Positions 19,056 to 64,000 of a stretch of 64,000 bases of DNA are shown here, piece by piece. A program made the translations under genes and the position numbers. The DNA is from an uncultured Oribacterium sp. (lineage in GTDB: Bacteria; Bacillota; Clostridia; Lachnospirales; Lachnospiraceae): positions 1,082-65,081 of the forward strand of contig CAMKKZ010000018.1 in assembly GCA_946413525.1 (NCBI GenBank), in the 5' to 3' direction. Positions within the stretch are counted from its first letter, which is position 1. The number at the start of each line of letters is the position of its first letter. Below the pieces are notes generated by a model. It saw only the letters and a list, made by a program, of their open reading frames with translations. It ran no database searches and had not been told where the DNA came from.

Positions 19056-19146
19056 ACTTCCTTTATCGCCTTTCTGGACAGGTATGATTTGAATGCGACA
19101 GTTCAGTCCAGCCGAACAGTCACATTAATGGATTGATTCAACGAAA

Positions 19147-33810: not shown

Positions 33811-33957
33811 CTCCCCTATTAGAGTGGGTTTTTGCCACTCTGATTTCATGACAAACCGATGCGGTATCGCATCAGCAAGGCTCCCCTGTCAGAGTGGGGG
33901 TTGACCACTCTAAGTTCCTGACATAGCGAACCGCTTGCGGGGCAAATCGGCTCTCCC
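33811..33957. repeat. two-hairpin intercistronic repeat, cluster c (2 units)
   Basis: CTCCCCTATTAGAGTGGGTTTTTGCCACTCTGATTTCATGACAAACCGATGCGGTATCGCATCAGCAAGGCTCCCC + type III unit; between dxs stop and tlyA start. Confidence 0.85.
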
Positions 33958-35962: not shown

Positions 35963-37099
35963 TCACCTGTCCCGATGTACCAGGGATTCAAAAAGTGACA
36001 AGAGGAAATCCCTCTCCCCCCCGTCCAGTCCTTCGGAAGGGATGGAACACAGGAGCTCCCCGGCCTCGGCGGAAAGTCTTGCCACCTCCGCAGCCGCTTT
36101 TTCTATTCCATGCAAAGTAACGTAGGTGGTTTTCCCGTTTTCCTCGTCCGAGTGGACAGGCTTTCCCAGCGTGTCATCGGTAGATGTCACGTCCAAGATG
36201 TCGTCCTGAATCTGGAAGGCAAAGCCCACCCTCTCCGCCACCCTGCGGAGCACTTCGATATCCGCCTCGGGGGCCCCGGCCAGCACGGCTCCAATGGACA
36301 GGGAGGCGGCAATCAGCCTCGATGTCTTCAAGCTGTAAATGAAATGAAGCTGATCCTCGGACAGTGCCTTCCCCGTCATTTCCACATCCACGACCTGACC
36401 GCCCAACATGCCATATACCCCGGAATCATGGGAGAGGTAATATACCGCTTCCATTGCATCACGCATATATCGAAGCAATTGCCCCGCCGCGCCCGGATTC
36501 CCATCCTGAGAAAACGCGGCCCACGGCTGCCCTTCCCGAGAAGACACGGCTTCCGGCTGCCCCTCCCGGGAAGACACGGCTTCCGGCTGCCCTTCCCGAG
36601 AAGATAAGGCTTCCGGCTGCCCTTTCTGAGAAAACGCGGCCCACGGCTGCCCTTCATTCTGAGAAAAGGCCTCATACTGCCGTCTCACAGCGGCGGAAAC
36701 AGCCTCAAAGGCATACAGCGACAGGGCGTCACCGCAAAGAGTGCCCATGTCCACCCCGTACTTAAACCATACGGATTCCCTTCCCCTGCGGTATTTGTCA
36801 TTATCCATGCAGGGGAGGTCGTCATGGCAGAGGGAAAAGGTATGGATCATTTCCATAGAAGCCATGGCGGCTTCCAGCACGGGCCTCATAAAGCCGTCCC
36901 TTGCGGAATCCTTTTTGAACAATTCATAGGCAGTCAGCATCATCAGGGGACGCAGGCGCTTGCCGCCGGCCTCCACCGCATAGTGAAGGGCTTCCATGAC
37001 CCTTTCCTGCTGCCCCTCCACCGCCGGGAGCTGCCTCCTGATGATATCCTCGCATAACTGCGTCCTTTTTTTCATCTCAAGAGAGAATTCCATCTTCAT
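35963..37099 (-). CDS. ispA: polyprenyl (farnesyl/geranylgeranyl) diphosphate synthase with internal repeat insertion
   Basis: FARM LCHDDLPCMDND and SARM FQIQDDILD; alternative ATG at 37075 one nt after xseB stop. Confidence 0.85.
   Translation of the reverse strand: MKMEFSLEMKKRTQLCEDIIRRQLPAVEGQQERVMEALHYAVEAGGKRLRPLMMLTAYELFKKDSARDGFMRPVLEAAMASMEMIHTFSLCHDDLPCMDNDKYRRGRESVWFKYGVDMGTLCGDALSLYAFEAVSAAVRRQYEAFSQNEGQPWAAFSQKGQPEALSSREGQPEAVSSREGQPEAVSSREGQPWAAFSQDGNPGAAGQLLRYMRDAMEAVYYLSHDSGVYGMLGGQVVDVEMTGKALSEDQLHFIYSLKTSRLIAASLSIGAVLAGAPEADIEVLRRVAERVGFAFQIQDDILDVTSTDDTLGKPVHSDEENGKTTYVTLHGIEKAAAEVARLSAEAGELLCSIPSEGLDGGERDFLLSLFESLVHRDR
36505..36670 (-). repeat. in-frame 30-bp x 5 tandem repeat inside ispA
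   Basis: GGCTGCCC at 36525, 36555, 36585, 36615, 36645; encodes EGQPEAVSSR-type decapeptides between FARM and SARM. Confidence 0.9.
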
Positions 37100-39739: not shown

Positions 39740-39900
39740 CCTCCCTGTCAGAATGGCTCCTGCCCACTCTGATCATATGACAAGCCGATGCTGCATCGCG
39801 TCAGCCAGCCTCCAGTCCGAACGGCTTCCGCCCACTCTGATCATATGACAAGCCGACGCGGCATCGCGTCAGCCAGCCTCCAGTCCGAACGGTTTTCAAG
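39740..39900. repeat. two-hairpin intercistronic repeat, cluster d (2 divergent units)
   Basis: ..CCCACTCTGATCATATGACAAGCCGATGCTGCATCGCGTCAGCCAGCCTCC twice; hairpin A variants CGATG-CTG-CATCG and GACGCG-GCAT-CGCGTC. Confidence 0.8.
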
Positions 39901-40046
39901 CCTTCCTGATTCCCGGCAAGGAAACAAGTTTCCCAGACCGGGCCTCCCCGTTCCTTCAGTTGAGTTCTCCTATCATACCATTTTGCCCGGATAATGTAAA
40001 GTGGGAGCGGCATTTACATATTCTTGAAGGATATCAATGAAGGATA

Positions 40047-44167: not shown

Positions 44168-44243
44168 TTCAATGGACGCATAGGTCGATTTGCCCCGCAA
44201 GCAGTTTGGTGTGTCAATAAATCAGCTACAAATAACGTAACAA

Positions 44244-44298
44244 AGCCGCCGTCCCCGGAGAGGTAGAAAAACCCTCCGGGGACGGCGGCTTGATTTTC
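44244..44298. terminator. bidirectional terminator between terD and the 585-aa gene
   Basis: AGCCGCCGTCCCCGGAG-N13-CTCCGGGGACGGCGGCT 17-bp stem, then TGATTTTC. Confidence 0.8.
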
Positions 44299-44315
44299 AA
44301 TCGGCGGGCCCGGGC

Positions 44316-46073
44316 TTACATCGTGGGCGCCTGGACTTGATTCGCATCTTTCTTCACATTGGCATGCTCCCTGACAATGCCGGCCTTCCTGCGGCGGAAA
44401 GCGGCGCGCACTCCGGCTCTTTCTTCCAGCTCCTGTAAGCTTACAGGCGTCCTCCTCCGTTGACTGGCGGCAGCGCGGATCTCCTCTGCCTTTTTCGGAT
44501 CGACCAGGTTCAAGATACCCAGGGCTCCCGCAAACCTGTCTTTCCCGGCCTTTGTTATCTGCTCTTTCATCCTTCCGTTACTCAGGTATTTCTGGCAGGC
44601 ATTGGAAATCTTTTGAGCGCTTTCCGCAAGCGCCCTTTTCTCCATGTTGTTCAGTTCCTTTTTGCCGGTAAGCTCCGTGAAGGTCTTCAGTTCGGACATC
44701 ATATTTTTATATTCCTTGCTGTCTCCGAAAAGTCTCCAGCTTCCGTTCATCATGTCATAATAATTCAAAAGCTTTTCCTGAAATTCAGGCTCCTTGCTTT
44801 TTTCAGCGAAGGCCATCTTTTCCCCCATGTATATGGCCCTATTCATCATGCCAAAGTTATCTTTCCCCATCTTTGGATAGTCCCCAAGCAAAAAACAGGT
44901 GCTTTCTACTGCTGCCTTTATAATCTTCGGATCTTCACCTGCCATCGACTTCTTTATTTTATCAATGAATTCAGGATCGTTTACATTCACATTTTTTAAA
45001 TTTTCCAGGAAGGTCTGGCTTTTTTTCGCGAGATTCTGGAAAAATTCGCTCTTTTCCTCGTAGGACTGGAAACCCTCCTCAGTTTTGCTCTTGCAAGCTT
45101 TGGAAAGCTGCTGCATCTCTTCTACCCAGCCCTTGTAAGGCTCGGCCATGTTTTTTATTTCATAATCCGCCCCGAAGGCGTCATTCGTGATGCCATCGAA
45201 CTGGGCGGAAAAATTGGACAGAAACACCACCTCCTCATTCGTCATATTCTTCTGAAGCTGTTCTCTTCTCAAAGAGATGTTAGCGGAAGCTGTTGACAAA
45301 TTGTGATGTTTATCACTTAAATATACACCATGAAGCACCTGATTGAGATTCGTTGTGTTATCCGTTTTCTGAAAGAATTTTTCCATCGTTTCATACGGTA
45401 TGGAAGCCACTTCCTCTCCGGCTTTCTGGAGCCTCTCCAGCTTCTTATCCATGGCATTCAGGTATTTGTTCTCATCGAGCTTCGCCATCGTTGCCAGGGA
45501 CGTATTCTCAAGTCTGAACGTGAAATCATAATAGTCATTATAGGCTTTAAAATAATTAATGAATTTCTCGCTCACAGGCTGAAGATCCGGATCATTCTTC
45601 AGCATCGCGGAAGTCGGCATATGTTCAATCTGCTCAAAGATGAAGGTACTGATTATGAATGTTTCATCGGACATATGATCCAGCGCGTTCTCTTTGTCGG
45701 AAGTATAGCGCCTCATCTGGATTTCGTAATATCTCAAATACTCATAAAGAAAAGGCTGCCTTTTACTGAGTCTATCATTCTTCAGCATTTTCTGTACAAG
45801 CTTCAACGAACTATCCATGGCCTCCTGCCCCGAGCGGGCTATATCTTCATTGATAGAACCGTTTTTGAAACCGTTAGGAAGATCAAGCGCAGGATATTCT
45901 AAATTAACTATACCTTTAGTAAGCGTCCCCATAATGTCTTTATTCAGCTGATCATCCCAAATAACGATCAGCTTATTGATGTCGTCTCTGTATTTCCAAA
46001 GACCCTCCCAATTATAAAGTACACTCATAAGACTTTGAAAAATTCCAAACGTGGCAATTGAGTAGTGCTTCAT
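44316..46073 (-). CDS. hypothetical all-helical protein, AT-rich orphan
   Basis: 585-aa uninterrupted ORF with own consensus promoter; sampled lines 33-37% GC versus 55-62% nearby; no motif recognised. Confidence 0.7.
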   Translation of the reverse strand: MKHYSIATFGIFQSLMSVLYNWEGLWKYRDDINKLIVIWDDQLNKDIMGTLTKGIVNLEYPALDLPNGFKNGSINEDIARSGQEAMDSSLKLVQKMLKNDRLSKRQPFLYEYLRYYEIQMRRYTSDKENALDHMSDETFIISTFIFEQIEHMPTSAMLKNDPDLQPVSEKFINYFKAYNDYYDFTFRLENTSLATMAKLDENKYLNAMDKKLERLQKAGEEVASIPYETMEKFFQKTDNTTNLNQVLHGVYLSDKHHNLSTASANISLRREQLQKNMTNEEVVFLSNFSAQFDGITNDAFGADYEIKNMAEPYKGWVEEMQQLSKACKSKTEEGFQSYEEKSEFFQNLAKKSQTFLENLKNVNVNDPEFIDKIKKSMAGEDPKIIKAAVESTCFLLGDYPKMGKDNFGMMNRAIYMGEKMAFAEKSKEPEFQEKLLNYYDMMNGSWRLFGDSKEYKNMMSELKTFTELTGKKELNNMEKRALAESAQKISNACQKYLSNGRMKEQITKAGKDRFAGALGILNLVDPKKAEEIRAAASQRRRTPVSLQELEERAGVRAAFRRRKAGIVREHANVKKDANQVQAPTM

Positions 46074-48249: not shown

Positions 48250-48535
48250 CTCCTCTATTAGAGTGGTTTTTTGCCACTCTAATTTCCTGACATACCGATG
48301 CGGTATCGCATCATTAAGGCTCCTCTATTAAATAAAGTAAATAAAGTGGTTTTTTTGCCATTTTAATTCATGACAAACCGATGTGATATCGCAAACTACA
48401 TGGCTCCTATATTAAAGTGGTTTTTTGACCGCTTTAATTTCTGACTAACAACTGCGGTATTGCAAGCTACATGGCTCCTTTAAAAGTGAGTTTTTGCCTC
48501 GATGCGGTATCGCGTTTCGCGTTAATATAGCTTCT
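48250..48535. repeat. two-hairpin intercistronic repeat, cluster e (4 units)
   Basis: CTCCTCTATTAGAGTGGTTTTTTGCCACTCTAATTTCCTGACATACCGATGCGGTATCGCATCATTAAGGCTCC followed by three type I units ending CTACATGGCTCC. Confidence 0.9.
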
Positions 48536-51390: not shown

Positions 51391-51400
51391 TAATCCCAGC

Positions 51401-51625
51401 CCTCTTCCCTATTAAAGTGGTTTTTTAGTTGCTTTAATTCATGATAAACAACTGCGGCATCGCAGGCTAAATGGCTCTTCTATTTAAAGTGGTTTTGGTT
51501 GCTTTAATTCCTGATAAACAACTGCGGTATCGCAGGCTAAATGGCTCTTCTATTTAAAGTGGTTTTGGTCGCTTTAATTCCTGATAAACAACTGCGGTAT
51601 CGCAGGCTAAATGGCTCTTCTATGC
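51401..51625. repeat. two-hairpin intercistronic repeat, cluster f (3 tandem units)
   Basis: Units 51411-51480, 51481-51550, 51551-51620; last two 70 bp each, differing only at 51500 (T) vs 51570 (C). Confidence 0.95.
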
Positions 51626-51836
51626 AATAGTCTTCTACATTATAACAAAATAGGGAGCGTCATTTCAACAGCCGGACAAAACGCGCGGCCAATGCATCAA
51701 AAGAAGCCCGGAGCCTGCCTTGCTGCATGTCGCAGCGGCCTGCTCCCGGGCTTCGTGAAAAGGAGGAATCTTCATTATTACTACTCAGGGAACCTCTGAA
51801 CAGTTACTCTCGTTTACATTCCCTCTATCGTCTGAA

Positions 51837-54125
51837 TTACCTCCTCTTATTCCGATTAAAATTGATAAGGCAGCCTGCCTTTACGATTTCCCGCTCGTTC
51901 TCCGTCATGTCCAGGATATAGAGGTGGATCTCCTCCGCCTTCCCGTCCTTGATGATGTAGGCAGGAATATCGGAAAGGTCGCCGTCCAGCGCCTTCCTCG
52001 CGCCCGGGACATAGATATAATCCCCGACTTCAAAGCCCGTCGGCTCGCCCTTCAAATGGAAGGGAAGCATGCCCCAGTTCATGCAGTTGGAACGGTAACG
52101 CTTGGTTGCGTACTCCTGTGTAATGTTGGCCAGCGCGCCAAGAACTCTCTGGCAGCTCGCGGCCTGCTCCCTCGCGGAGCCATCGCCGGGCTTATTGGCA
52201 TAGATCGTCGATCCAAGCTCCACATCTGCCGCGTCAATCTTCTCCTGCCCCGGGATGCCGCGGATCACGTCAAGGATAGCGGAGAGCTCGGAGCCGGGCT
52301 TCCCGGCGATACGCTCCCTTTCCATGGCCTGTACCGCCTTGGCGCGTCCCACATATTCCGGATCCCTGCGGGACAGGGTGAATTCCGCAAGCCCCAGCGG
52401 ATTGGAGCGGAAGGAGGAAGTCTCGCCGGAAGGGATCAGCTCGTCCGTCGTCGTGACCTCGTCAAGGATCTTTGAAACCACCTTCAGAAGGACATTTTCC
52501 CCAAGGGCCTCCTGCTCCGGCCAGTCCTTGATGTTCGGCCCGAAACGAAGCTCTTTGGAAGGCTCCGCCTTGTCAAAGCCCTGATAGACCCGGGACTTGT
52601 AGGAGCGGTCATCGTAATTGTACTCGGGAATGTCTCCCCAGCAGTCAAACTCCTCCGCGGATGTCAGCTTTCCGCCGTTTGCCGCCGTAGCCGCGATGGA
52701 ACGCGCGTCCATCAGCGCCACGGCCGCCATCTGCCCGTTGCCCGGCTTGCTGCCCTCCCGGTTCGGGAAGTTCCTGGTCGTATGACGGATTGCCAGGGCA
52801 TTGTTTGCCGGTGTATCCCCGGCGCCGAAGCAGGGGCCGCAGAAGGCCGTGCGGATGACCGCGCCGGCATCCATCAGGTCGGCCAGAAGCCCCTTCCTGT
52901 CCAGGTCGGTAAAAACAGGCTGAGAGGAAGGGTAGACGGAAAGATAGAACTCATCGAAGCCAATGCTCCTGCCCTTCAGGCAATGGGCTGCCTCCACGAC
53001 ATTGGTGTAATTGCCTCCGGCGCAGCCGCCGATCACGCCCTGCTGCACCTGGAGCTTCCCGTCCTTTGTCACCTTGTCAAGCAGCTTGAACTCCGCCCTT
53101 CCCTCGGCGACCCTCGCCGCCTCTTTTTCCGTCTCGCGGAGAATGTCCTCGAGATTCTCATACAGCTCGTCAATCTCATACCCGTTGGAAGGGTGGAAAG
53201 GCAGGGCGATCATCGGCTTTACCGTGGAAAGGTCCACATAGACACAGCCGTCGTAATAGGCCAGCTCCTCCGGCTCGACCTTGCGGAAATCACTTTCCCT
53301 GTTGTGCTTCGCAAGGAACGCCTTCGTATCCTCATCGGTCCGCCAGATGGAGGAAAGACATGTCGTTTCCGTCGTCATGACATCGATGCCGTTTCGGAAA
53401 TCCGTCGTCATGGTGGAAACGCCGGGACCCACGAATTCCATGACCTTATTCTTCACATAACCCTTCTTGAAAACGGCACGGATGATGGCAAGCGCAATAT
53501 CATGAGGACCGACATAGGGAGCCGGCTTCCCATCAAGGTAAATGGCCACGACCCCGGGATAGGCCACGTCATAGGTATCCCGAAGGAGCTGCTTCACCAG
53601 CTCGCCGCCGCCCTCGCCGATGGCCAGGGTCCCCAGCGCGCCGTAGCGGGTGTGGGAATCCGATCCCAGGATCATCTTGCCGCCTCCCGCGAAATTCTCC
53701 CGCATGTACTGGTGGAGCACCGCGATGTGGGGAGGCACAAAGATGCCGCCGTATTTTTTCGCCGCCGAAAGCCCAAAGAGGTGGTCATCGTCATTAATGG
53801 TGCCGCCAACGGCGCAGAGCGAATTGTGGCAGCAGGTCAGGACATACGGGATTGGGAATTTGTCCATCCCGGAGGCCCTTGCCGTCTGCACAATGCCCAC
53901 ATAGGTAATGTCATGGGATGTCATCGCGTCGAAACGGATCTGAAGCTTTTCCATATCCCCGGAAATATTATGGGATTTCAGAATGCCATAGGCCATGGTT
54001 CCCTTTTTCGCTTCTTCCCTGTCCGCAGCCCTTCCCAAAAGCTGCTCAACCTTCGCGGACTCCGATTCCGGGACAAGCTCCTTTCCCTTCACCAGGTAAA
54101 CGCCGCCGTCATAAAGCTTTACCAT
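51837..54125 (-). CDS. aconitase-superfamily hydratase of unknown specificity (fused large + swivel domains)
   Basis: 762 aa; [14 protein letters not shown] and FCGPCFG Fe-S ligand motifs, C-terminal swivel [11 protein letters not shown]; not the canonical GSCTN aconitase signature. Confidence 0.8.
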
Positions 54126-54135
54126 AATGTCATAT

Positions 54136-54180
54136 CCTCCTCTATTAAAGTGGTTTCTGCTTATCTTATACTCTTTAACG
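54136..54180. repeat. degenerate two-hairpin repeat remnant, cluster g
   Basis: CCTCCTCTATTAAAGTGGTTTCTGC.. keeps SD and left arm of hairpin B only. Confidence 0.5.
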
Positions 54181-54187
54181 CCGGCTT

Positions 54188-54295
54188 TTGCCTATGCCTA
54201 TTTTACAGATCTGCGAAACTCAGAAGTGCAATCCTTGATACAATAATGCGCTGAAATTGCCTATGCCAATTTTACAGTTCTGCGAAACTCAGAAG
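54188..54295. repeat. 40-bp direct repeat x 2 (69-bp period)
   Basis: TTGCCTATGCC(T/A)ATTTTACAG(A/T)TCTGCGAAACTCAGAAG at 54188 and 54257. Confidence 0.8.
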
Positions 54296-54408
54296 GCTCT
54301 GCGCAGTAATTTTGAATAGAATTACGTTAACGAGTATAATTGCCGGCAAATAGATGCTGAATCGCGGCAAGGCTTTCCTGCCATGAAAAGCTGCTGCCTC
54401 TCTGAAAA

Positions 54409-56385
54409 TCAATCCTCATCCTGTATCAGGCCTTCCTTCACAAGCTGCTGCTTCAGGAAACGGAGCTGCCCGCCGGCCAGCACCACCTCCATCTCGCTGT
54501 CGGAAAGCTCAAGCCGGGTATAGAAGCTGAGTCCCTTTGTCTTGTCCTCCACCAGGACCCTGCGGCCCCGAATCTGATCCGGAAAGTCGCGGATCTCGAT
54601 TTCATCCATCAGCTCCACCCGGTCATAATCCGCCGGGTTTTCAAACAGCATCGGAACAATGCCGTGATTGATCAGGTTGCCTTTGTGGATCCTGGCAATG
54701 CTCTTCGCAATCACGCACTTCACCCCAAGGTACATCGGATTGATCGCGGCATGCTCCCTGGAGCTCCCCTGTCCGTAATTCTCGCCCCCGATGATGATGG
54801 ACCGCTGCATCTCCCTGGCACGCTCTGAAAATTCCGGATCATAGCGGTTGTAGCAGTATTTCGACATGAGCGGGATATTGGAACGCATGCTGGAAAACTC
54901 CGCGCCCGCCGGGGTAATGTCGTCCGTGGAAATATTGTCCCCTCCCTTCAGGGAAATCCCGCAGTTCAAATGCTGCGCCGGCTTTTCAGGAACCGGGAGA
55001 TATTTGATGTTCGGCCCCTTCACGACCTCCACCTTCGCCGCTTCCTCTTCCGGAAGGGGCGGGATCAGCAGGGAATCATCGATCTCATAGGACAGCGGCT
55101 CATGGATTTCCGCGAGCTTTGCCACATCCTCCCCGAGAATGTCCTCCGCCGTCGCGAAGGTTCCCTTGATAGCCGTAGCCGCGGCGGACTCCGGGCTTAC
55201 AAGATAGATATTCGCGTTCGGGGATCCCGCGCGGCCGCGGAAATTCCTGTTGGAGGTACGCACCGCAATGCCGTTTGTGGGCGGAACCTGCCCGATGGCG
55301 CAGCATGGACCGCAGGCAATTTCCAGAATACGCACGCCCGCGTCAATCAGCATCTCAAGATAGCCGTCCTTCATCAGTTGCTTGTAAACCTGCCTCGACG
55401 AGATCCCCAGCGTACACTGCACGCATTCATTGACATGCCTGCCCTGCATGACGAGCGCCGCCTTCGCGAGATCCGCGTAAGAGGCGTTGGTGCAGGAACC
55501 CATGAACACCTGCTGCACGGGCGGATGATCCTTTAAATCCTTCATAGGGATCACATTGTCCGGCTGATGGGGCAGTGCGATCAGCGGCTCCAGGGCGGAC
55601 AGGTCGATCTCCATTTCCCCGTCATATTCCGCGTCCTGATCCGGAAGCAGCTCCACATAATCCTTGCCCCTCCCCTGGGCCTCCAGAAAGCGCTTCACCA
55701 CGGCGTCCGCCGGGAAAATCGACGAGGTCGCGCCCATTTCCGCGCCCATGTTGGTGATCGTCATGCGCTCAGGAACCTCCAGGTTCTCCGCCCCCTCGCC
55801 GGTGTATTCATAAACCTTTCCAAGACCGCCCTTGACCGTAAGCCTCCGGAGCATTTCCAGAATGACTTCCTTCGCGTTGACGCCGGGACGAAGCTTTCCC
55901 TTCAGATTCACGCGGATGACCTCCGGCATGGTAAGGCGCATCGGTACACCCGTCATCGCCGTGGCCACGTCCATACCGCCCACGCCGATGGCCAGCATCC
56001 CCACCGCGCCGCTGGAGGGCGTATGGCTGTCTCCTCCCATCAGCACCTTCCCGGGAGCCGCGAAACGCGACGTATGTATTGTATGGCAGATGCCATTGCC
56101 CGGGCGGGATACATAAACACCATATTTCTCCGCGGCCGTCCTTAAGTAAATGTGGTCGTCCGGCGTCTTGAAGTCGATGTACAGAAGATTGTGATCCAGA
56201 TTGGAGACGCTCAGCTCGGTCCGGGCACGGGGAAGCCCCACAGCCTCAAAGGCCAGGTAGGTCATAACCGCGTTGATATCATGCGTCAGGGTCTGGTCAA
56301 CCTTCAAAAAAACATCCTTGCCAGGCTCCATAACGCCTGAAACAAGATGTGACTGGATGATTTTACGTGTCAGATTCATTCCCAT
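54409..56385 (-). CDS. aconitate hydratase (short clostridial type)
   Basis: 658 aa; GDSHT, MGSCTNASY, ACGPC Fe-S motifs plus swivel domain. Confidence 0.85.
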   Translation of the reverse strand: MGMNLTRKIIQSHLVSGVMEPGKDVFLKVDQTLTHDINAVMTYLAFEAVGLPRARTELSVSNLDHNLLYIDFKTPDDHIYLRTAAEKYGVYVSRPGNGICHTIHTSRFAAPGKVLMGGDSHTPSSGAVGMLAIGVGGMDVATAMTGVPMRLTMPEVIRVNLKGKLRPGVNAKEVILEMLRRLTVKGGLGKVYEYTGEGAENLEVPERMTITNMGAEMGATSSIFPADAVVKRFLEAQGRGKDYVELLPDQDAEYDGEMEIDLSALEPLIALPHQPDNVIPMKDLKDHPPVQQVFMGSCTNASYADLAKAALVMQGRHVNECVQCTLGISSRQVYKQLMKDGYLEMLIDAGVRILEIACGPCCAIGQVPPTNGIAVRTSNRNFRGRAGSPNANIYLVSPESAAATAIKGTFATAEDILGEDVAKLAEIHEPLSYEIDDSLLIPPLPEEEAAKVEVVKGPNIKYLPVPEKPAQHLNCGISLKGGDNISTDDITPAGAEFSSMRSNIPLMSKYCYNRYDPEFSERAREMQRSIIIGGENYGQGSSREHAAINPMYLGVKCVIAKSIARIHKGNLINHGIVPMLFENPADYDRVELMDEIEIRDFPDQIRGRRVLVEDKTKGLSFYTRLELSDSEMEVVLAGGQLRFLKQQLVKEGLIQDED

Positions 56386-56435
56386 AGTTTACTCCCCTTA
56401 ATTATCAGATAGATGTATTGACAAATCAGACTATC

Positions 56436-56680
56436 TTGACTTCTGACAAGCCGGCACGGTATTAAAAAACACGCCCATTCTGATCATGCGCTCTTTTATT
56501 AAAGTGGTTTTTTCGCCAGTTTAATTCCGGACAAATATCTGCGGTATCGCAGGCTATATGCTTCCTTAATCAAAGTGGTCTTCCGCCCGTTTTAATTCCT
56601 GATACGCAGCTTCGGCACCGCTGTCGCAGGCTATTTGACTCCTTAATCTGAATGGGTGTGCCGCTCTGACTTCTCACAAA
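56436..56680. repeat. two-hairpin intercistronic repeat, cluster h (2 units + fragments)
   Basis: TTATTAAAGTGGTTTTTTCGCCAGTTTAATTCCGGACAAATATCTGCGGTATCGCAGGCTATATGCTTCC and a more divergent second unit. Confidence 0.8.
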
Positions 56681-56721
56681 TCAAGGTAATGTGTAACGAC
56701 TCATGTACTGTATTTGAATTA

Positions 56722-57543
56722 TCAGGTATTCGGATTGTCAAGCATCCTCTCCGCTTCCTCTTCCGTCCACAGCCCCTTCCGGTCCTTAAGTATGCTTTCA
56801 AGCAGCGGTTCCGCCTTTTCCTTTTCTCCCCTCCGGAGAAAGAACGAGGCCATTTCCAGCTCCATCTCCTTTCGGTGTATCAGGTTCGTCGAGAGCTCTA
56901 TCTCTTCGCTAAGGAAGGCGGTATCCGTTTCGTCTGATGCCAGAAGGGCGTTCCTCCTGGCCTCCGAAAGCCGGATACAGATTCCCAGATTTTGCGCCAG
57001 CATCCTCGCCCTGTGCTCCGCCGCCTCCTTAAGAGAGCCCATATCCTTTATATACCCCTCCGCCTTTTCCGCATCCTTCCGGAGAAGGGCCAGATTACAG
57101 CGCTGGTTCACGATCAGGGCTGTAGTGGGAAGGGCATGCATGCGGAGCTTTTCGGGCTCCACACTGTTTACCAGCCTCTCCGCTTCCTCGAATTTCCCAA
57201 TAGCCTCATACGCGAAGGACAGCTTCTGAACTCCGTTCACATATTCAGAAAGCTCATGAGGTATCTTCTCATTCATGGGACCGAACACCCGGATATATTC
57301 CTCCGGCTTTGTATCCCGGAAAAGGAGCGCATCAATTTCCCGAAGCCTCCGGCTTGCCAGGATCATGGCCAGCACCCTCCCAAGGACGCCGCCAAGTATA
57401 ATAAAGAGGCCCATGAAAAATATTCGCCCGTATTCCTGCCCGACAAGGATCTCCCCATGGTAATAAAAAAGGAAGAACAGCCCGGCCGATACTGCACAAA
57501 CAAACATCAATACATAAGTAGTCCATTTATAATATACGGCCAT
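56722..57543 (-). CDS. hypothetical membrane protein with helical-repeat (TPR-like) C-terminal domain
   Basis: 273 aa; two TM (YVLMFVCAVSAGLFFLFYY, FFMGLFIILGGVLGRVLAMIL) then amphipathic helices; no specific motif. Confidence 0.5.
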   Translation of the reverse strand: MAVYYKWTTYVLMFVCAVSAGLFFLFYYHGEILVGQEYGRIFFMGLFIILGGVLGRVLAMILASRRLREIDALLFRDTKPEEYIRVFGPMNEKIPHELSEYVNGVQKLSFAYEAIGKFEEAERLVNSVEPEKLRMHALPTTALIVNQRCNLALLRKDAEKAEGYIKDMGSLKEAAEHRARMLAQNLGICIRLSEARRNALLASDETDTAFLSEEIELSTNLIHRKEMELEMASFFLRRGEKEKAEPLLESILKDRKGLWTEEEAERMLDNPNT

Positions 57544-57640
57544 AGCTGTTCTCCCCCCGCTATCATACTCTGCTCTATTCTGTTTTTATCGTTTAAACAC
57601 AAGTCCTGTCTCAATGCATTTCATCCTGCTTAAGACAGGC

Positions 57641-57750
57641 CTCAATCCTGATTTCTGATTCAGATAGATATCAATCCTGATTCGAAAATCATCATTCTTG
57701 ATTCAAAAATCATCGATTCTGATTCGGAAATCATCAATACTGATTCAAGC
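57641..57750. repeat. ~21-bp x 5 tandem array
   Basis: TCATC(A/G)ATTCTGATTC(A/G)(A/G)AAA-type units between membrane-protein start and transporter stop. Confidence 0.75.
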
Positions 57751-57811
57751 TGTACCCGATCAGACTTTTCATTCTCGTTTTCCCTTGAAGCATCCTTGCG
57801 GAGCCTTCCGA

Positions 57812-59137
57812 TCAGTGAAGCCAGAAGGAGAAGAGGAAGGAAGCCACGATCAGGACAATGCCGCCGCCAAGCCTGGAGCTAAGCTGCGCGTAAGCGATCA
57901 GATCCATACGGTCTGCAGCGCCAAGGCAGGCAAGGTCGCCGTTTCCGCCACGGTTCGCCATGCAAAGGCCGGCCGTAAGGGCGGAGTCAATGGGATAGAA
58001 ACCTACAAGGTAGCCGATGCCGCCGGCTCCGATGATGGCTCCGATGACAATGAAAAGTGCCATAATGATGTTGCCGGGTGCCATGGCGGTGAAGAGCTCG
58101 CCAAGGTTGAAGTCCGCGCCCATGCCGCACATGATGATGATACCCAGCTTGCCGGAGAAGAAGCTCTGCAGCCTCTTGGCGCCGGCGCGCACACGGGCAG
58201 GGATCAGGCCTGTCGCCGCAAGGATGACCACGAAGATGATCATATAGGCATAGGCATGGATCGGGGCACCCGCAATTTCCGGAAGGATGACCTTGTTCAT
58301 GATGCGGCCCACGCTGTAGCAGGCGAAGGCCAGAAGGAACGCGCCGGCAAGGTCGTCATTATCCGTTTTGATCTTTGCGTCGTCCCTTGTCAGGTTGCCG
58401 CCCTTCCGGATCAGCGTCTTCTTGTCGCCTGTGAGGGAGGGAACCTTCTCTCCCAGAGCGTTCAGCGCGGCAGAGGCGATGATACAGAAGATGTTCGCGA
58501 TGGTCAGAATGATGATGGCAAAGGAATAATAATCCGCCGAAGGCTCCCCTGTGATCTGATTATAAATCTGGGAAAGGGGAACGGCACCGGCGCCGTTTCC
58601 GCCGCCCATGATCGGCAGCACATACTTGATGATTGCTTCCGTCGGCTTGACACCGAAAGGAATACCGCTTATGACGCCCAGAACCATGGCTGCCGCAAGG
58701 CCGCCCAGTATCGCCGGAATATAGCCTGCGAAGGAGCGAAGAAGGATATCCCTGTCAAGGGAAAGAACCGAGCCGACAATCAACATGACGATGAACATTT
58801 CCAGGAAGTTCGCATCGTCAGAGATAAAGCTGTTAATGGCGTCCAGCCCCTCCTGAGGGACATAACCAAACTGCTTTAGAATCGCCACGCCAAAGAATGT
58901 AAGCAGAAGGCCGCCGCCGATATACTTGTTCCAAATAGGGATACGCTCGCCAAGCTCATTAAAAATAACCGCGAGACCAAAGCAGATTGCCAATGTCCCC
59001 GTCATGGTGGTGGACTGCACCATGGAGTCCCCCGCCTTGATGTACATGGGACAAAGGCAGAGGGCAACGCAGATAAGCGCCAGCCACCAGGGCTGCCCGC
59101 CGAGCCAGAGCCCGGATCTTTCATTTGTGTCTGACAT
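57812..59137 (-). CDS. 2-hydroxycarboxylate transporter (CitS/MleP family)
   Basis: Polytopic protein resembling citrate:Na+ / malate permeases; start MSDTNERSG at 59137 with AAGGAGG 6 nt upstream. Confidence 0.75.
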   Translation of the reverse strand: MSDTNERSGLWLGGQPWWLALICVALCLCPMYIKAGDSMVQSTTMTGTLAICFGLAVIFNELGERIPIWNKYIGGGLLLTFFGVAILKQFGYVPQEGLDAINSFISDDANFLEMFIVMLIVGSVLSLDRDILLRSFAGYIPAILGGLAAAMVLGVISGIPFGVKPTEAIIKYVLPIMGGGNGAGAVPLSQIYNQITGEPSADYYSFAIIILTIANIFCIIASAALNALGEKVPSLTGDKKTLIRKGGNLTRDDAKIKTDNDDLAGAFLLAFACYSVGRIMNKVILPEIAGAPIHAYAYMIIFVVILAATGLIPARVRAGAKRLQSFFSGKLGIIIMCGMGADFNLGELFTAMAPGNIIMALFIVIGAIIGAGGIGYLVGFYPIDSALTAGLCMANRGGNGDLACLGAADRMDLIAYAQLSSRLGGGIVLIVASFLFSFWLH

Positions 59138-59535
59138 TTCGTTCCTCCTTTTCAGACGTTTCGAAGTAGAGCAAAGCAGCAACATTACAGAGTATAACAA
59201 AAAGAAAAGTATTATTCATCAAAAAAAATTTTAATTTTTCACCGCCTGTACACCATCTGTGCGTTTGCCATTCAAAGCGATTTTTTGACGCGTGATGAAA
59301 GGAAGATGTTTCTGAAAAATAATGCGAAAATAATGTTTAATGCGCTTGCCGCCCAGGCTGCCGGGCGATTTTATGATTCATTTCGAGACGAAGCTGCTTT
59401 CAAAAAAATGCTTAATGCACTTCCACCCATGGCAATATTATGGACGGGCTTTGCCGGAGTCAAACAACGCTGATAAGGCTTTGGATGAATTCCCGGCCGA
59501 TATTGCAAGGACGCGGGGACACAAGGGCAATTTCC

Positions 59536-60717
59536 TCAGCCCCTGGCTTCAATGCCCTTGATGGTTTCCAGCAGGTAATCGGTGAACTCCGCGGCGCTGG
59601 CATCCTCCACCTGCGTAGTGACCACCAGCTTCCGTTCCGTCACCGTGCATATCTCCAGGGCTTCCTCAAGGATTGCCTTCCTGTCCGCATAGCCGATGTG
59701 GGCCATCATCTGCCCCATGGCGCGGATCAGGGAGCAGGGATCCGCATAATTCCCTCTCCCATGGCTCATAAGATAAGGAGCCGTCCCGTGAATCGCCTCA
59801 AAGAGCGCGTACTTGTTTCCGATATTCGATGAGCAGGCCGTCCCCAAGCCGCCCTGATGCTCCGCCGCCACGTCCGTGACAATGTCGCCGTAAAGGTTGG
59901 GAAGCACGATGACCTCTATGCCCTTGTTGAATTCCGGATCCAGCATCTTCGCCGCCATCGCGTCCACCAGCTTCTCCGTCACCTCGATCTCCGGGTATTC
60001 CTCCTCGCCGATACGATGCACCGTCTTGATAAAGTTGCCATCCACCAGCTTCACGATGTTCCCCTTGGTTACGATGGTCACGTTCTTTTTGCCGTTCTTC
60101 CGGGCGAATTCAAAGGCCGCCCTCGCGATCCTCTCCGCGCCCGGCTTCGTCAGGACCTTGAAATCAATGGCCAGATCCTCGTTCACCTCGATGCCCTTGT
60201 TGCCCCAGATATATTCGCCTTCTATATTCTCACGGAAGAAGGTCCAGTCAATGCCCTTGTCCGGGATCCGGATCGGACGGACAGCGGCGAAGAGGTTCAG
60301 CCCCCTCCTGAGAAGGGAATTGGCGCTGACCAGGTTCGGGAGCCCTTCCCCTGCCCTCGGCGTAACAAAGGGGCCCTTGACCAGCACGTCGCACTTTTTG
60401 CACTCCTCAAAAACCTCGTCCGGAAGGGACTGCATCTTCGCCACCCGGTTTTCAATCGTCATTCCTTCGATAATGCGGATCTCCACCCGTCCGGAAGCAA
60501 TCTCCCCCTTCAAGAGCTCCTTCACCACCCTGAGTGCCTGCTCCATGATGATGGGGCCGATGCCGTCACCCGGCAGGATGCCGATGACAATGTGGGAAAG
60601 CTTCGAAAAATCCTTGACCTCCGTATCCTCCTTCATCTTTTCAATCCGCTCATACTCCCCGCGAATCAGCTCGGCAAATTTCTCCGATGCAATCCGAATC
60701 TCCTCTTCCCGCGTCAT
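59536..60717 (-). CDS. isocitrate/isopropylmalate dehydrogenase family protein (NAD-IDH-like)
   Basis: 393 aa; ILPGDGIGPII, NLYGDIVTD, ~40-aa N-terminal helical extension. Confidence 0.85.
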   Translation of the reverse strand: MTREEEIRIASEKFAELIRGEYERIEKMKEDTEVKDFSKLSHIVIGILPGDGIGPIIMEQALRVVKELLKGEIASGRVEIRIIEGMTIENRVAKMQSLPDEVFEECKKCDVLVKGPFVTPRAGEGLPNLVSANSLLRRGLNLFAAVRPIRIPDKGIDWTFFRENIEGEYIWGNKGIEVNEDLAIDFKVLTKPGAERIARAAFEFARKNGKKNVTIVTKGNIVKLVDGNFIKTVHRIGEEEYPEIEVTEKLVDAMAAKMLDPEFNKGIEVIVLPNLYGDIVTDVAAEHQGGLGTACSSNIGNKYALFEAIHGTAPYLMSHGRGNYADPCSLIRAMGQMMAHIGYADRKAILEEALEICTVTERKLVVTTQVEDASAAEFTDYLLETIKGIEARG

Positions 60718-61006
60718 GGCAAATTATCCTCCATTTTCAAATTATATGGCTTTACAAATATGCACAAATTCTCTTGAAGCTTCATGAATATCCATGTGCT
60801 TTTTTCTGATTTTCATTATAATCAAAGCCAGCACATAAGTAAAATATATAGTTTGGCATATATGGTATGCAATTTTTTTTATGTCTTAGTGATGATTCAT
60901 TTTTAAGCCCCTGAATCGATTCGGAAAGGTTTTGACGCGCTCCAAGGAAAAGCGCGTCAAAATCCTCCCTTTGGTCGGACAAACCCTTTCGGGGTTCGCC
61001 AAGTAC

Positions 61007-61043
61007 GGACATAAATGTTCCTGAAGTAACATTCATGTCCTAT
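61007..61043. repeat. CATGAATG-type palindromic hairpin (copy 3)
   Basis: GGACATAAATGTTCC-TGAAG-TAACATTCATGTCC immediately downstream of the LysR stop. Confidence 0.6.
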
Positions 61044-61047
61044 TGAT

Positions 61048-62154
61048 TTATTCCTCTCCTCCGAATTCCTGCTGCATCAGTTCAATGAGGTAACGTTCCG
61101 CGCGGTCAAGATAAACGTCTTCTTTATATATAACATTGACATCCCAGGCGCTTTCTTCCCCTGCATGAAAAACAGAAAGCTCCTTCATGGAACGCATGGC
61201 CATCAGCACCCGCTCCGGAACAATGGTGATTCCCAGTCCCGCCTTGGCAAGCTCCGCGGCGGAAAGACAGCTTGACACCTCCATGGCCTCCTTCGGGAAA
61301 AAACCGGCCTTCCTCATAATGACATCCGTCTTTTTCCGGATGTACTGGCCCCTCCGCATGATAATGAACGGAAGACGGCGAAGCTTTTTGATGTCAGCGA
61401 CGGGAATATCCTCCGACCGGGTCAGAACCCCCTCATAGCTGCTTTTCCGCACGGCATCCGCCCCCATCCCATCTATCAGAGTGGTTTTTTGCAACTCTGA
61501 ATTCTGACATGGCGACCCGCCTGCGGGACAAGTCGGCTCATCCGGTCCCTCACTTCCTGAATGGAATCCGCTGCCCTGGCCATCAATGGCCATGTCCCTT
61601 TCGCATGAAAGCCCAAGTTCCGCCTCCACCATACCGGCCGCCGCCACCAGCAGAATCCTCTCCCTATAGATACGCTCACATTTCAGCCCGGCGGGAAAAT
61701 CCGTTTCCTCCCCCGGCAGTATGGCAAGTGAGAGCTTGTCCTTTTCCAGATCGCGGATAATGTCATCCGATTTGGACTCGGAAAGCCTGATCTGGATTCC
61801 CGGGAAAAGCTCCCGGAATTTCCCGGCCACCCTGGGGAGCATATAACCGGCTCGTTCCGTCGGGATGCCAAGGCGTATCTCCCCCTTCTCCCCATGCCCG
61901 ATGTCCCGAAGCTCCCTCCGGAGATTGTCCCGGAGCTTCAGGATCTGCCGCGCCGTCGAAATATACTTCTCCCCGGCATAGGTAAGCGTGATCGGATTGC
62001 TCTTCCGATCAAACAGCTTTACATCCATCTCTTCCTCCACCTTTGAAACAATATGGGAAAGAGCTGGCTGCGAGATATACAGCCGCCGGGCCGCCTTCGT
62101 AATGCTGCCCTGATCGGCAATGGTCGTCATATAAACAAGCTCACGAAAATCCAT
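61048..62154 (-). CDS. LysR family transcriptional regulator carrying an in-frame repeat-element insertion
   Basis: HTH GSITKAARRLYISQPALSHIVSKVEEEM; start MDFRELVYM at 62154; effector domain about 55-60 aa longer than typical LysR proteins around 61440-61620. Confidence 0.8.
   Translation of the reverse strand: MDFRELVYMTTIADQGSITKAARRLYISQPALSHIVSKVEEEMDVKLFDRKSNPITLTYAGEKYISTARQILKLRDNLRRELRDIGHGEKGEIRLGIPTERAGYMLPRVAGKFRELFPGIQIRLSESKSDDIIRDLEKDKLSLAILPGEETDFPAGLKCERIYRERILLVAAAGMVEAELGLSCERDMAIDGQGSGFHSGSEGPDEPTCPAGGSPCQNSELQKTTLIDGMGADAVRKSSYEGVLTRSEDIPVADIKKLRRLPFIIMRRGQYIRKKTDVIMRKAGFFPKEAMEVSSCLSAAELAKAGLGITIVPERVLMAMRSMKELSVFHAGEESAWDVNVIYKEDVYLDRAERYLIELMQQEFGGEE
61471..61543. repeat. 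two-hairpin repeat (type III unit) inside the LysR coding sequence
   Basis: ATCTATCAGAGTGGTTTTTTGCAACTCTGAATTCTGACATGGCGACCCGCCTGCGGGACAAGTCGGCTCATCC, same orientation as intergenic copies, read through in frame. Confidence 0.85.
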
Positions 62155-62157
62155 ATT

Positions 62158-62262
62158 TCCTCTTCTATTCAGAGTGGTTTTTTGTCGCTCTGAGTTCTGA
62201 CACTGCGAACAGCATGCGGGGCAAACTGGCTCTTCTATAAAGAGTGGGAATTTGTCCAATTA
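62158..62262. repeat. two-hairpin intercistronic repeat, cluster i (type III unit + fragment)
   Basis: CTTCTATTCAGAGTGGTTTTTTGTCGCTCTGAGTTCTGACACTGCGAACAGCATGCGGGGCAAACTGGCTCTTC; abuts LysR start. Confidence 0.85.
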
Positions 62263-62485
62263 AATATAAATCATCTTAGTCTTTGTCGGTTGCAGGATAA
62301 GAAAGCTCCGTGTACGCCGTCATCTTCATAAACCTGTGGATGTATTTACCGCATCCCCCCTCTTTTTTTCGTAATATAATTTTACCACAAGCAGGCTTTC
62401 ATATCCACGAATAAAATGACCTTGACAGAGCTTTTGAACACTCTGAGTTGTTTTTCTCATTTCACACTCTTAAAGATTCCGTCCC

Positions 62486-64000
62486 TCATCTCCGATAATA
62501 ATTAATCAGGCAGCCGGCGCACAGGATTTCCCTTTCTTCTTCTGTGAGACTGCCCAGAGTGCATTGGATTTTACGAGTTATATGCAACGGTACATAACCT
62601 GAAAAAGCTTTGTCCGATGCCCTGCCAATCTCAGATTCCGGAAAAGCCCCGGCAGTGGCAGCGGCACGTCTGCCAATCCCATCCGCTTCCCGGAATTCAG
62701 ACTCCGGAAAAGCCACTACCTCCGCTTCCAGTTCTTCCTTCCCACTCTTCAACATTTCCCGTATATTCCGAATGAGCAGAAAAGTCCCAACGGGAAGACA
62801 GGGGTCATCCTCCGTCCTGAGCGGCAGCAGCCCCCAGTTGATGCAGTTGCTGCGGTACCGCTTCGTCGAATATTCATTAGCCAGGTTGGCCCATCCCCCC
62901 AGCACCTTCTGACAACTGGCCGCCTGCTCCCGGGAGGATCCGTCCCCGATCTGCTCGGAAACCATCAGGGAACCATAAGAAATTTCCGATACATCGCAAT
63001 GCAATTCCCCGGAAAGCGCGGAAAGCAGCTCCGAAGCCTTGAAGCGCGTACCTTCGGAAGCGGTATTTTTTGCTGCTTTGAAGCCCGCACTTTGGGAAAC
63101 GCCTTCCCTCGCCGCCCTCTCTTTTTCGGATAACAAAATACCAATCTCCCTGGCTTCTGACCGAATCTCCTTTGCCCTCCCAACGTAGCCGGGATCCCGG
63201 CTCTGCATGGTAAATTCAGAAATCTTTTCCGGATTGCTGCGGTAGGAGCTGGATTCCCCGGAGGGCAGCAGCTCGTCCGTTGTGACAGAGCCCTTGTAGG
63301 AACCCGCCACCTTGAGAAGAAGATGCTTCTTAAGAACAGGCATTTCCGGCCAGTCGGCGATGTTCGGACCCATGACAAGCTCCACCTCCGAATCCCCCTT
63401 CCCGAAATAATCAAATACCTGGCTCTCATAAATCCCCGGGGAATATAGATAGGCATGCTCCCTCCAGGTCTCCTCCGGAAGCTCCGTCGCCGACGTCAGC
63501 CTTCCGTCATTCCGCACAGTGGCCGCAATGGAGCGGGCATCCATGAGGAATACCGCGGCCATCTGTCCCTGTCCGGGCTTGCTTCCCTCCCGGTTCGTAT
63601 AATTCCTTGTCACATGCCGTATGGAAAGCTGGTTGTTGGCCGGCGTGTCCGTCACGCCGAAGCAGGGGCCGCAGATGGCCGGACGCATGGTCACGCCGCA
63701 CTGTGCCAGCTCCGAAGCAATGCCGCTGCGCATAAGCGCGTCCATGACGGGCAGGCTTGACGGATTCACATGGAGGTTCAGCCCGTCCCCCCGGATCCCG
63801 TGCCCCCTGAGAATGTCCGCAATAGCCGCTATGTTTTCAAACATCCCGCCGGCGCAGCCGCTCACCAGGGCCTGATCCGGGTAAAAACCCCCGTTCCGAA
63901 TATGGCGCATGATGGAAAACGCCTTTCCCTTGTCCCCCTTGATCCTTCTTCCTTCCTTTTCCACTTCAGAAAGCATATCATCCAGATTTAAAAGGAATTC
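62486..64000 (-). CDS. aconitase-superfamily hydratase, paralog of 51837..54125 (5' end beyond window)
   Basis: Frame stays open to position 64000; VSGCAGGMF, ICGPCFG, GDGSSREQAAS, C-terminal CAGCLINYYRR parallels [14 protein letters not shown] of the paralog. Confidence 0.8.
   Translation of the reverse strand, partial: EFLLNLDDMLSEVEKEGRRIKGDKGKAFSIMRHIRNGGFYPDQALVSGCAGGMFENIAAIADILRGHGIRGDGLNLHVNPSSLPVMDALMRSGIASELAQCGVTMRPAICGPCFGVTDTPANNQLSIRHVTRNYTNREGSKPGQGQMAAVFLMDARSIAATVRNDGRLTSATELPEETWREHAYLYSPGIYESQVFDYFGKGDSEVELVMGPNIADWPEMPVLKKHLLLKVAGSYKGSVTTDELLPSGESSSYRSNPEKISEFTMQSRDPGYVGRAKEIRSEAREIGILLSEKERAAREGVSQSAGFKAAKNTASEGTRFKASELLSALSGELHCDVSEISYGSLMVSEQIGDGSSREQAASCQKVLGGWANLANEYSTKRYRSNCINWGLLPLRTEDDPCLPVGTFLLIRNIREMLKSGKEELEAEVVAFPESEFREADGIGRRAAATAGAFPESEIGRASDKAFSGYVPLHITRKIQCTLGSLTEEEREILCAGCLINYYRR
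62620..62715 (-). repeat. in-frame duplication in hydratase paralog
   Basis: CTGCCAATC..TCAGA(T/C)TCCGGAAAAGCC at 62622 and 62670; encodes AFPESE(F/I).. twice, absent from paralog. Confidence 0.7.

Follow-up and report, generated by a model that had tools for sequence, protein, structure and literature searches.

A two-hairpin interspersed repeat family beside gene starts and within proteins of an uncultured Oribacterium

The described repeats closest to the element reported here include two kinds. Rickettsia palindromic elements (RPEs), of about 150 bp, occur in obligate intracellular Alphaproteobacteria, where they lie in frame inside unrelated housekeeping genes (PMC10969869). Repetitive extragenic palindromic (REP) sequences are single palindromes of 20-40 nt with a GT(A/G)G head, arranged as inverted doublets or in alternating orientation (PMC2817692). 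Here, we describe a repeat with two hairpins in a stretch of 64,000 nucleotides from an uncultured Oribacterium sp. of the Lachnospiraceae (assembly GCA_946413525.1, contig CAMKKZ010000018.1, positions 1,082 to 65,081); this whole stretch is called the window, and coordinates are counted within it. Profile and covariance-model searches of the window located 17 full or near-full units and about seven fragments at 11 loci. The unit has been inserted repeatedly, in an orientation fixed relative to the adjacent gene and often beside an existing unit or a start codon, and it has expanded locally by tandem duplication. With a little more than even confidence, we regard it as a lineage-specific, non-autonomous interspersed mobile repeat, that is, a small selfish element in the broad class of miniature transposable elements with inverted repeats (MITEs), REP, BOX and RPE sequences.

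Copies and anatomy of the unit

A profile built from eight units gave about 20 nhmmer matches, all on the + strand, at ten loci (E 1e-20 to 1e-3), and a hand-specified covariance model covering both hairpins, run with filters off, recovered 17 units at E<0.005. The pattern of the second hairpin matched five times, against 0.00 expected in shuffles. A repeat of about 70-76 nt at these ten loci had been proposed in a sequence-only reading of the window, and the searches bear this out. That reading had also placed every copy in one orientation, which does not hold: it overlooked a degenerate unit on the - strand (44180-44248), so that ten loci lie on the + strand and one on the - strand. It likewise missed the copies inside reading frames; the locus that it listed at 61471-61543 is real, but is not intergenic and lies in frame within the lysR open reading frame (ORF), 61048-62154. 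Units are 68-83 nt long (typically about 69-76 nt) and have no coding capacity for a transposase. The identity matrix resolves three subfamilies, in which we name units by their first position: subfamily I (33811, 48250 and 10501, 79-89% identical among themselves), subfamily II (48404, the 514xx-516xx units, 3534, 3602, 56491 and 48340) and subfamily III (61468, 62160, 33886 and the reversed 44180). An assembly artefact is ruled out by Logan assemblies made independently from two further sequencing runs, in which the asp23 and rex loci carry identical units. Two of the independent assemblies, L081 and L082, share the asp23-proximal unit, and both contigs end inside it.

Read in gene sense, the unit consists of a purine-rich, GGAG-like box, CC with about eight variable bases, hairpin A, a linker, hairpin B, TAATAG and the next purine box. 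Hairpin A is a short GC hairpin of 4-6 bp with a tetraloop (GATGCG/CGCATC type). Hairpin B has an A/T-rich stem of 9-10 bp, with the arms ATTAGAGTGG/CCACTCTAAT and an A-rich loop, CAAAAAA. The two hairpins are unrelated in sequence, and the linker between them, (T)GTCAG, is near-invariant. The earlier proposal that both are kept by compensatory changes is supported by the model-based alignment, in which 88.4% of cells are paired on the + strand, compared with 80.1% in shuffles and 29-46% in slid-partner controls, and both partners vary in 9 of 16 pairs (at pair 13-40, AU and GC occur seven times each, with no broken pair); as the alignment had been fitted to the structure and copies are related to one another, these counts are supportive rather than a formal test. 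From a plain MAFFT alignment RNAalifold derived no structure, the arms being displaced by loops of variable length. Folded against shuffles, unit 48250 gave z = -4.4 / -4.6 and units 33811, 48404 and 56491 gave z of about -2.5 to -2.9. Units 51404 and 3602 folded no better than shuffles (z near 0 to +1), and the whole array 51395-51640 gave z = +1.2 in sense and -0.7 on the + strand. Since the best-kept units alone surpass shuffles, the structure belongs to the source element and has been lost in many copies. Such decay is what would be expected of relics.

Purine boxes bracket each unit or array and are more alike within a locus than between loci. The box is AATAGAGGAG at either edge of unit 48250 and AGGGGAG at either edge of 33811; ATAGAAGAG flanks 62160 on its two sides and recurs where the 51404 array ends distally. 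At 48250, 33811 and 62160 the boxes, 7-10 nt long, are identical on the two sides, and boxes also resemble one another across loci. The arrangement looks like a target duplication of 7-10 nt; alternatively, it might reflect a conserved target together with a matching element end. Terminal inverted repeats were not found when the first 25 nt were compared with the reverse complement of the last 25 nt (best local score 3-4), and the only inverted repeats in the unit are the two internal hairpins. Copies truncated at the 5′ end, which keep nothing but the loop, hairpin B's right arm and the box, lie at 10572, 62233 and 54137, and several arrays start distally in this way.

Which strand folds? The sequence-only reading had noted wobble pairs that are G-T on the + strand and A-C in gene sense, and had suggested antisense RNA or single-stranded DNA as the folded species. 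For hairpin B the asymmetry was confirmed by model-based pair counts, with 19 G-U cells on the + strand versus 4 in gene sense, although these cells are not independent, subfamily variants having been counted repeatedly. Of the hairpin-B cells, 92.9% are paired on the + strand versus 84.9% in gene sense, where A-C mismatches appear. Much of this wobble signal is a single inherited right-arm variant (...CCGC... or ...TTGC...) of subfamily II and some of subfamily III. Hairpin A shows no wobble asymmetry between the strands, and the minimum free energy of the whole unit has no strand preference (the + strand is more stable in 8 of 17 units; means -18.3 and -19.5 kcal/mol; Wilcoxon p=0.64). The suggested folded species is thus favoured by the hairpin-B wobbles only and finds no support in the whole-unit energies, and we take folding of the + strand as a lead, not as a result.

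These observations bear on one possible means of spread. In a single-stranded DNA element like REP sequences with their REP-associated tyrosine transposases (RAYTs) or like miniatures of IS200/IS605, a Y1 (HUH) transposase would recognise the hairpins of one strand, and cutting and rejoining would take place beside a short, guide-specified sequence, the GGAG box. Strict orientation and head-to-tail arrays without inverted repeats would follow. The absence of terminal inverted repeats, the subterminal position of the hairpins, the strict orientation, the insertion beside a short motif and the excess of G-U cells on the + strand would all suit this model. However, the ends of IS608-type elements carry similar hairpins, unlike the two unrelated hairpins found here; the flanking box is specific to the locus, as in a duplication, and not to the element; and the window contains no Y1 transposase gene. 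Furthermore, the + strand favoured by the wobbles is C-rich and antisense to nearly all genes. Judged by GC skew and gene orientation, it is probably the leading-strand template, which is not the strand that such elements use, and the whole-unit energies carry no strand bias. A GTAG motif precedes hairpin A (sense) in four units, as in REP heads (PMC2817692), but these are 4 of about 17, and there are no alternating or inverted pairs like those of REP doublets and bacterial interspersed mosaic elements (BIMEs). We therefore consider this model improbable.

Several other identities were considered for the unit. A conserved leader peptide was ruled out, the sense mini-ORFs differing by subfamily (ATG-TAG, MRYRIGLS, MMRYRIGMSGN). 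So was an intrinsic terminator: a 5-bp stem followed by UUGUUUAUCA (sense) is present in subfamily II only, and subfamilies I and III have no U-run. No consistent -35/-10 promoter pair was found inside the unit on either strand. The remark that the family is not a recognised one agrees with the Rfam results, as the whole window gave no match at the gathering score, and permissive scans of two arrays gave chance matches alone, to snoRNA and viral pseudoknot models, with E of 0.9-8 and scores that fall well short of the gathering level. ARAGORN found no tRNA or tmRNA gene in the window, and the unit is accordingly not a tRNA-like repeat. BLAST searches of plasmids and phages returned no match to the unit. 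The JGI metagenome scan with the hairpin-B pattern returned 34 loci, all of them chance matches to the pattern alone. In scans of viral contigs (IMG/VR), one pattern had no match and the other matched two AT-rich phage contigs. An exact hairpin, AGAGTGGTTTTTTGCCACTCT, followed by a T-run (terminator), occurs in contigs L121 (1103-1123) and L122 (1255-1275) with the rest of the unit absent, and was set aside as chance or convergence, not homology.

Placement and spread of the units

In eight of the nine intergenic arrays, the gene-proximal box lies no more than about 15 nt from a start codon, at the distance of a Shine-Dalgarno sequence and resembling one; the earlier observation that the proximal unit often ends in the Shine-Dalgarno sequence is thus upheld. 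On the distal side, 62-180 nt separate the array from the upstream stop codon. Orientation follows the gene at all eleven loci, ten on the + strand beside - strand genes and one on the - strand beside terD, a + strand gene. This single reversed copy (44180-44248, n=1) favours a link to transcription over one to replication. Promoter-like sites in gene sense lie on the distal side of three arrays: at 3686-3714 on the - strand (TGGAAA-17-TATACT, TG-extended), just distal of the 3534 array; at 39972-40000 on the - strand (TTTACA-17-TATGAT, TG-extended), distal of the asp23 array; and at 51639-51668 on the - strand, immediately distal of the 51404 array, where the site is strong (TTGAAA-18-TATAAT with TG, 11 of 12 matches). 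Because of these sites, the three arrays are probably transcribed as mRNA 5′ leaders, and an influence of the units on translation initiation or mRNA stability seems plausible from their position.

Might the unit therefore be a selected, cis-acting element of the sense mRNA? In a 5′ leader or intercistronic spacer, hairpin B, just upstream of an unpaired GGAG box, would present this ribosome-binding site and shield it from upstream sequence, and additional boxes and hairpins would block 5′-to-3′ decay in the manner of the STAB-SD and 5′ stem-loop stabilisers of Bacillus. Sense transcription from the promoter-like sites, a proximal box at Shine-Dalgarno distance in eight of nine arrays, an orientation fixed relative to genes and the identity of units between strains are all compatible with this role. 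Against it, the host genes are unrelated; the sense hairpins are lost in many copies (z near 0 to +1 for 51404 and 3602, and +1.2 for the 51404 array); and the A-C mismatches of hairpin B fall on the sense strand, the less fully paired one (84.9% vs 92.9%). In addition, some copies are found within ORFs and one follows terD on its downstream side, positions that would make no sense for a leader, and close relatives manage without the element. We consider a selected mRNA element unlikely, though less so than a single-stranded DNA element.

Copies also occur inside proteins. Unit 61468-61542 lies in frame within the lysR ORF and splits the substrate-binding domain of LysR. The nusB reading frame of strain L082 continues across a unit of subfamily III, again in this frame, giving a product of 297 aa. 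The nusB gene of the window has no unit, owing to a 228-nt deletion between TGAAGCCG microhomologies (L082 1130-1357); this length polymorphism was ruled out as a transposition footprint, as the microhomology deletion is larger than the unit. A protein search with in-frame translations of the unit found four more proteins (P0147, P0149, P0150 and P0151) carrying it on the same strand and in the same frame, and a control search with matched reverse-strand frames found no proteins. Their source labels and single-member clusters suggest that the four derive from the same metagenome-assembled genome (MAG). The module has the form DEPxCPAGGSLCQNSExQKPTLI, 23 aa encoded by 69 nt, and is present in 1-6 tandem copies per protein: P0147 has two units, which split a flavodoxin-like domain, and P0149 has two full and four shortened units. 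The 69-nt subfamily is free of stop codons and lasts in coding regions as in-frame modules of 23 residues.

Comparison with relatives indicates that the units are additions. The nearest DXS proteins are 75-77% identical to that of the window, one being assigned to an Oribacterium sp. MAG and another to a metagenome of the bovine gut; in a DXS scan of genome contigs, the best GTDB representative was 65% identical, and the repeat was not found in the 80 other DXS loci examined. Nor were units found at three syntenic asp23-nusB-xseA-ispA-dxs-tlyA loci of the nearest relatives (DXS 75-77%). In the relatives, dxs and tlyA overlap without a spacer, whereas 244 nt holding two units separate them in the window, where tlyA has also gained a new N-terminal stretch.

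How did the arrays grow? Every array consists of units in direct, head-to-tail order. Three units at 514xx-516xx are mutually 90-94% identical and two at 397xx-398xx are 84% identical, and both sets look like local tandem duplications. Other arrays are mixed in subfamily (33811/33886 and 48250/48340/48404): unit 33811 is 89% identical to 48250, which lies 14 kb away, and 66% identical to its neighbour 33886, and unit 48250 is 77% identical to its array neighbours. For neighbours of different subfamilies to arise, insertions must have landed next to each other independently, in phase and with one orientation. Subfamily I looks youngest, with the most intact hairpins, and provides the gene-proximal unit in all three arrays that hold it. 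The types of hairpin A and hairpin B are mostly linked per subfamily. Consequently, of the earlier statement that three subtypes are combined modularly, the three subfamilies stand; the mixing occurs at the level of arrays and is limited within units. Its description of the element as mobile or slippage-prone agrees with the absence of units at the relatives' syntenic loci, with the mixed-subfamily neighbours and with the near-identity of the 514xx-516xx units.

A duplication-prone genome could, in principle, have produced the family without transposition, through local slippage, unequal crossing-over and gene conversion from a few ancient seeds. The window is rich in other tandem repeats, in genes and in spacers, one array varies in length between strains, the 51404 and 39740 arrays are local duplications, and boxes are array-specific. 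Nevertheless, at least 11 dispersed loci in 64 kb and at least five genic sites on other contigs need seeding at new sites, the nearest units by sequence are often tens of kilobases apart with dissimilar neighbours, and units are missing in relatives. We regard this explanation as very improbable.

We therefore return to a non-autonomous mobile repeat. Insertion just upstream of a start codon would leave a usable ribosome-binding site through the terminal GGAG box of the unit, and for this reason insertion might be tolerated even between genes that formerly overlapped or were translationally coupled. The arrays would then be transcribed as 5′ leaders or intercistronic spacers, and most copies would afterwards decay neutrally. 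Several points weigh against this interpretation. First, among the window proteins, Pfam scans found no transposase or other mobilising gene. Second, we found no clean pair of filled and empty sites, the sole strain polymorphism being the 228 nt in nusB. Third, the flanking-box signal comes from few loci and involves 1-nt differences. Fourth, gene orientation and replication direction are confounded in the window save for one degenerate copy, and orientation and adjacency to start codons could result from selection, not insertion specificity. Finally, units at orthologous loci show 100% conservation between strains of 95-99% identity, which fits constraint no less than recent common descent.

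A more far-reaching possibility is an undescribed type of mobile element that homes to ribosome-binding sites, that is, to GGAG-like boxes. Inserting in the orientation of the gene, it would bring a replacement Shine-Dalgarno box and so make its insertion neutral, by a transcription-coupled or RNA-mediated (target-primed) route, and its 69-nt form would seed 23-residue modules in proteins. The lack of inverted repeats, the 5′-truncated copies and the duplication-like flanks would be expected of such insertion and not of a known bacterial transposase. This proposal is speculative, and we give it a low probability, lying between those of the mRNA element and the single-stranded DNA element.

The individual arrays and their surroundings

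The window covers ordinary chromosomal DNA from a member of the Clostridia, with about 43 of some 48 genes on the - strand and a negative GC skew of the + strand throughout. Pfam scans identified pcrA, rex, uxuA, a TRAP transporter, glgA, recN, argR, nadK, tlyA, dxs, ispA, xseA, nusB, asp23, icd, lysR, three aconitase-family genes and a 2-hydroxycarboxylate transporter. Unless stated otherwise, the arrays lie on the + strand.

At 3534-3676, two subfamily-II units (3534-3601 and 3602-3676), antisense to - strand genes, are flanked by the pcrA stop (3732) on one side and on the other by a 120-aa ORF that starts at about 3525 and whose ATG is 8 nt from the proximal box, AAAGGAGG. At 10501-10599, a subfamily-I unit (10501-10576) is followed by a truncated one (10572-10599; loop, hairpin B's right arm and box). 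The array directly precedes a repeat-rich gene for a polysaccharide deacetylase, which starts at 10495, and is divergent from rex; it is identical in the conspecific strain L117. The mixed array at 33811-33955 is placed in the spacer that runs from the dxs stop (34040) to the tlyA start (33795), with the subfamily-I unit (33811-33885), whose hairpins are intact, on the gene-proximal side of the subfamily-III unit (33886-33955). Two GC-richer units, at 39740-39814 and about 39808-39882, make up the array at 39740-39882 upstream of asp23 (start 39735).

The reversed, degenerate subfamily-III unit on the - strand (44180-44248) lies 13 nt downstream of the stop of terD, and its GCTTGCGGGGCAAATCG recurs unchanged at the corresponding place in unit 33886. 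Directly adjoining it, at 44250-44300, a long hairpin with a perfectly paired stem (GCCGCCGTCCCCGGAG...CTCCGGGGACGGCGGC) and T-rich tails stands between the convergent terD (+) and 44316-46073 (-). This hairpin looks like a bidirectional terminator, and it is absent from the consensus scan list.

At 48250-48513, upstream of an ORF of 603-605 aa (start 48242 or 48248), a proximal subfamily-I unit with perfect hairpins (48250-48325) is followed by two units of subfamily II (48340-48403 and 48404-48479) and by one with an internal deletion (48477-48513). Three near-identical subfamily-II units at 51404-51619 precede a gene for an AAA-ATPase/PD-(D/E)XK protein (start 51390). Upstream of an aconitase-family gene (start 54125) there are two fragments: one at 54137-54160, with the right arm of hairpin B and a GAGGAGG box that forms the Shine-Dalgarno-like sequence of the gene, and one about 170 nt away at 54330-54375, with box, hairpin A and linker. 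Between these halves of a split unit, at 54160-54330, lie two direct repeats of 40 nt (CTTCTGAGTTTCGCAGAWCTGTAAAATWGGCATAGGCAA), which could be an operator or a regulatory insert. The array at 56435-56704, with two subfamily-II units (56491-56565 and 56563-56634) and degenerate fragments on either side, is the only one that does not abut a start codon, being about 105 nt from 56385. The solitary subfamily-III unit within lysR, at 61468-61542, has the in-frame reading DEPTCPAGGSPCQNSELQKTTLIDG. Finally, a subfamily-III unit (62160-62234) and a truncated unit (62233-62264) form the array at 62160-62264 upstream of the lysR start (62154).

Four arrays of the repeat are found inside a metabolic cluster at 51837-63976, which comprises three aconitase-family genes (two full-length and one divergent), an isocitrate/isopropylmalate dehydrogenase gene, the 2-hydroxycarboxylate transporter gene and the LysR regulator gene; within it, segments 52647-52866 and 63479-63698 are paralogous and 72% identical.

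Other repeats are also present in the window. A second interspersed family with the core ...CCTCTGGATTTCAGAGAATTCCAAATGGAAAGC..., partly palindromic, is found at 17038-17192, 26908-26955 and 27557-27604, again near gene starts (ppiC-like and DUF212 genes and the uxuA/gntR spacer). Unrelated intergenic tandem arrays lie at 7555-7741, 13297-13722, 13858-14031, 19146-19271 and 27832-27951, with periods of 17, 36-37, 33, 18 and 40 nt, respectively, and at 6684-6854, with a period of about 39-68 nt. The 36-nt array is about 300 nt shorter in strain L117, and such tandem arrays thus differ among strains. In-frame tandem repeats occur in housekeeping genes at 4725-4949 (pcrA, 45 nt), 9705-10026 (the deacetylase gene, 54 nt), 32729-32980 (tlyA, 84 nt), 36493-36681 (ispA, 30 nt) and 22795-22869 (15 nt). 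Several window proteins are much longer than the orthologues of relatives: TlyA has 377 aa versus 274-278, IspA 378 versus 312-334, and NusB 221 or 297 versus 179-186. Expansion of proteins by repeats seems to be genome-wide in this Oribacterium host.

Comparison with described repeat families

If the interpretation as a mobile repeat is correct, the family would be a natural selfish repeat that spares its host by bringing its own ribosome-binding site, which would explain how it wedges between tightly packed or overlapping genes and builds up in 5′ leaders. The family also extends the colonisation of proteins by in-frame, RPE-like insertions beyond obligate intracellular bacteria, to a free-living Firmicute of the gut or rumen. 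In practice, the family interrupts assembly from short reads (both L081 and L082 stop within a unit; 1-87) and inflates ORF calls through N-terminal extensions and read-through C-termini, as in L082, where nusB is read on across what was once a spacer and into a unit. As a marker, the family could be used to type strains of the lineage.

Among the described systems, MITEs (Correia/NEMIS, ERIC and RUP) and the pneumococcal BOX element share with this unit small size, multiple copies, the lack of coding capacity and of a transposase, an intergenic position often co-transcribed with neighbours, the division into subfamilies and a modular look. The unit differs from them in having no terminal inverted repeats, in its strict orientation to genes, in head-to-tail arrays that share a purine box and in a proximal unit that supplies the ribosome-binding site. 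Miniatures of IS200/IS605 (PATE-like) resemble it in having no inverted terminal repeats, subterminal hairpins and oriented insertion beside a short motif; here, however, the hairpins are unrelated to each other, the box is duplication-like and no TnpA gene was seen in the window. STAB-SD sequences and 5′ stem-loop stabilisers of Bacillus are a functional analogy only, with GGAG boxes without a productive start codon and hairpins in Firmicute 5′ leaders; they are single, gene-specific elements, whereas the present repeat is a dispersed family. The REP/BIME (RAYT) system is likewise made of dense, short, extragenic hairpin repeats in arrays, and one subfamily here has GTAG 5′ of hairpin A (sense). 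This motif is restricted to 4 of about 17 units, the rest having TTAG, ATAG or none, and each unit has two different hairpins in direct orientation, with some genic copies. Inverted doublets or alternating orientation, the REP/BIME trait, were not found in any array.

For the in-frame genic copies, the Rickettsia palindromic elements are the only parallel that we found documented. Like them, the family consists of short, structured, lineage-private repeats that are both intergenic and in frame and that provide a peptide module at tolerated positions (PMC10969869), and in-frame insertion into unrelated genes was found here in LysR, L082 NusB, P0147, P0149, P0150 and P0151. On the other hand, the unit is about 70 nt long and forms head-to-tail arrays in fixed orientation and frame, and most of its copies lie at ribosome-binding sites of a Lachnospiraceae-type gut or rumen bacterium; host phylum and unit length set the published elements apart by their description. 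The class of interspersed structured repeats is known; we found no described family that has the present combination of features: fixed orientation, flanking boxes without inverted repeats, the supply of a Shine-Dalgarno sequence, mixed head-to-tail arrays and 23-aa modules in a Firmicute.

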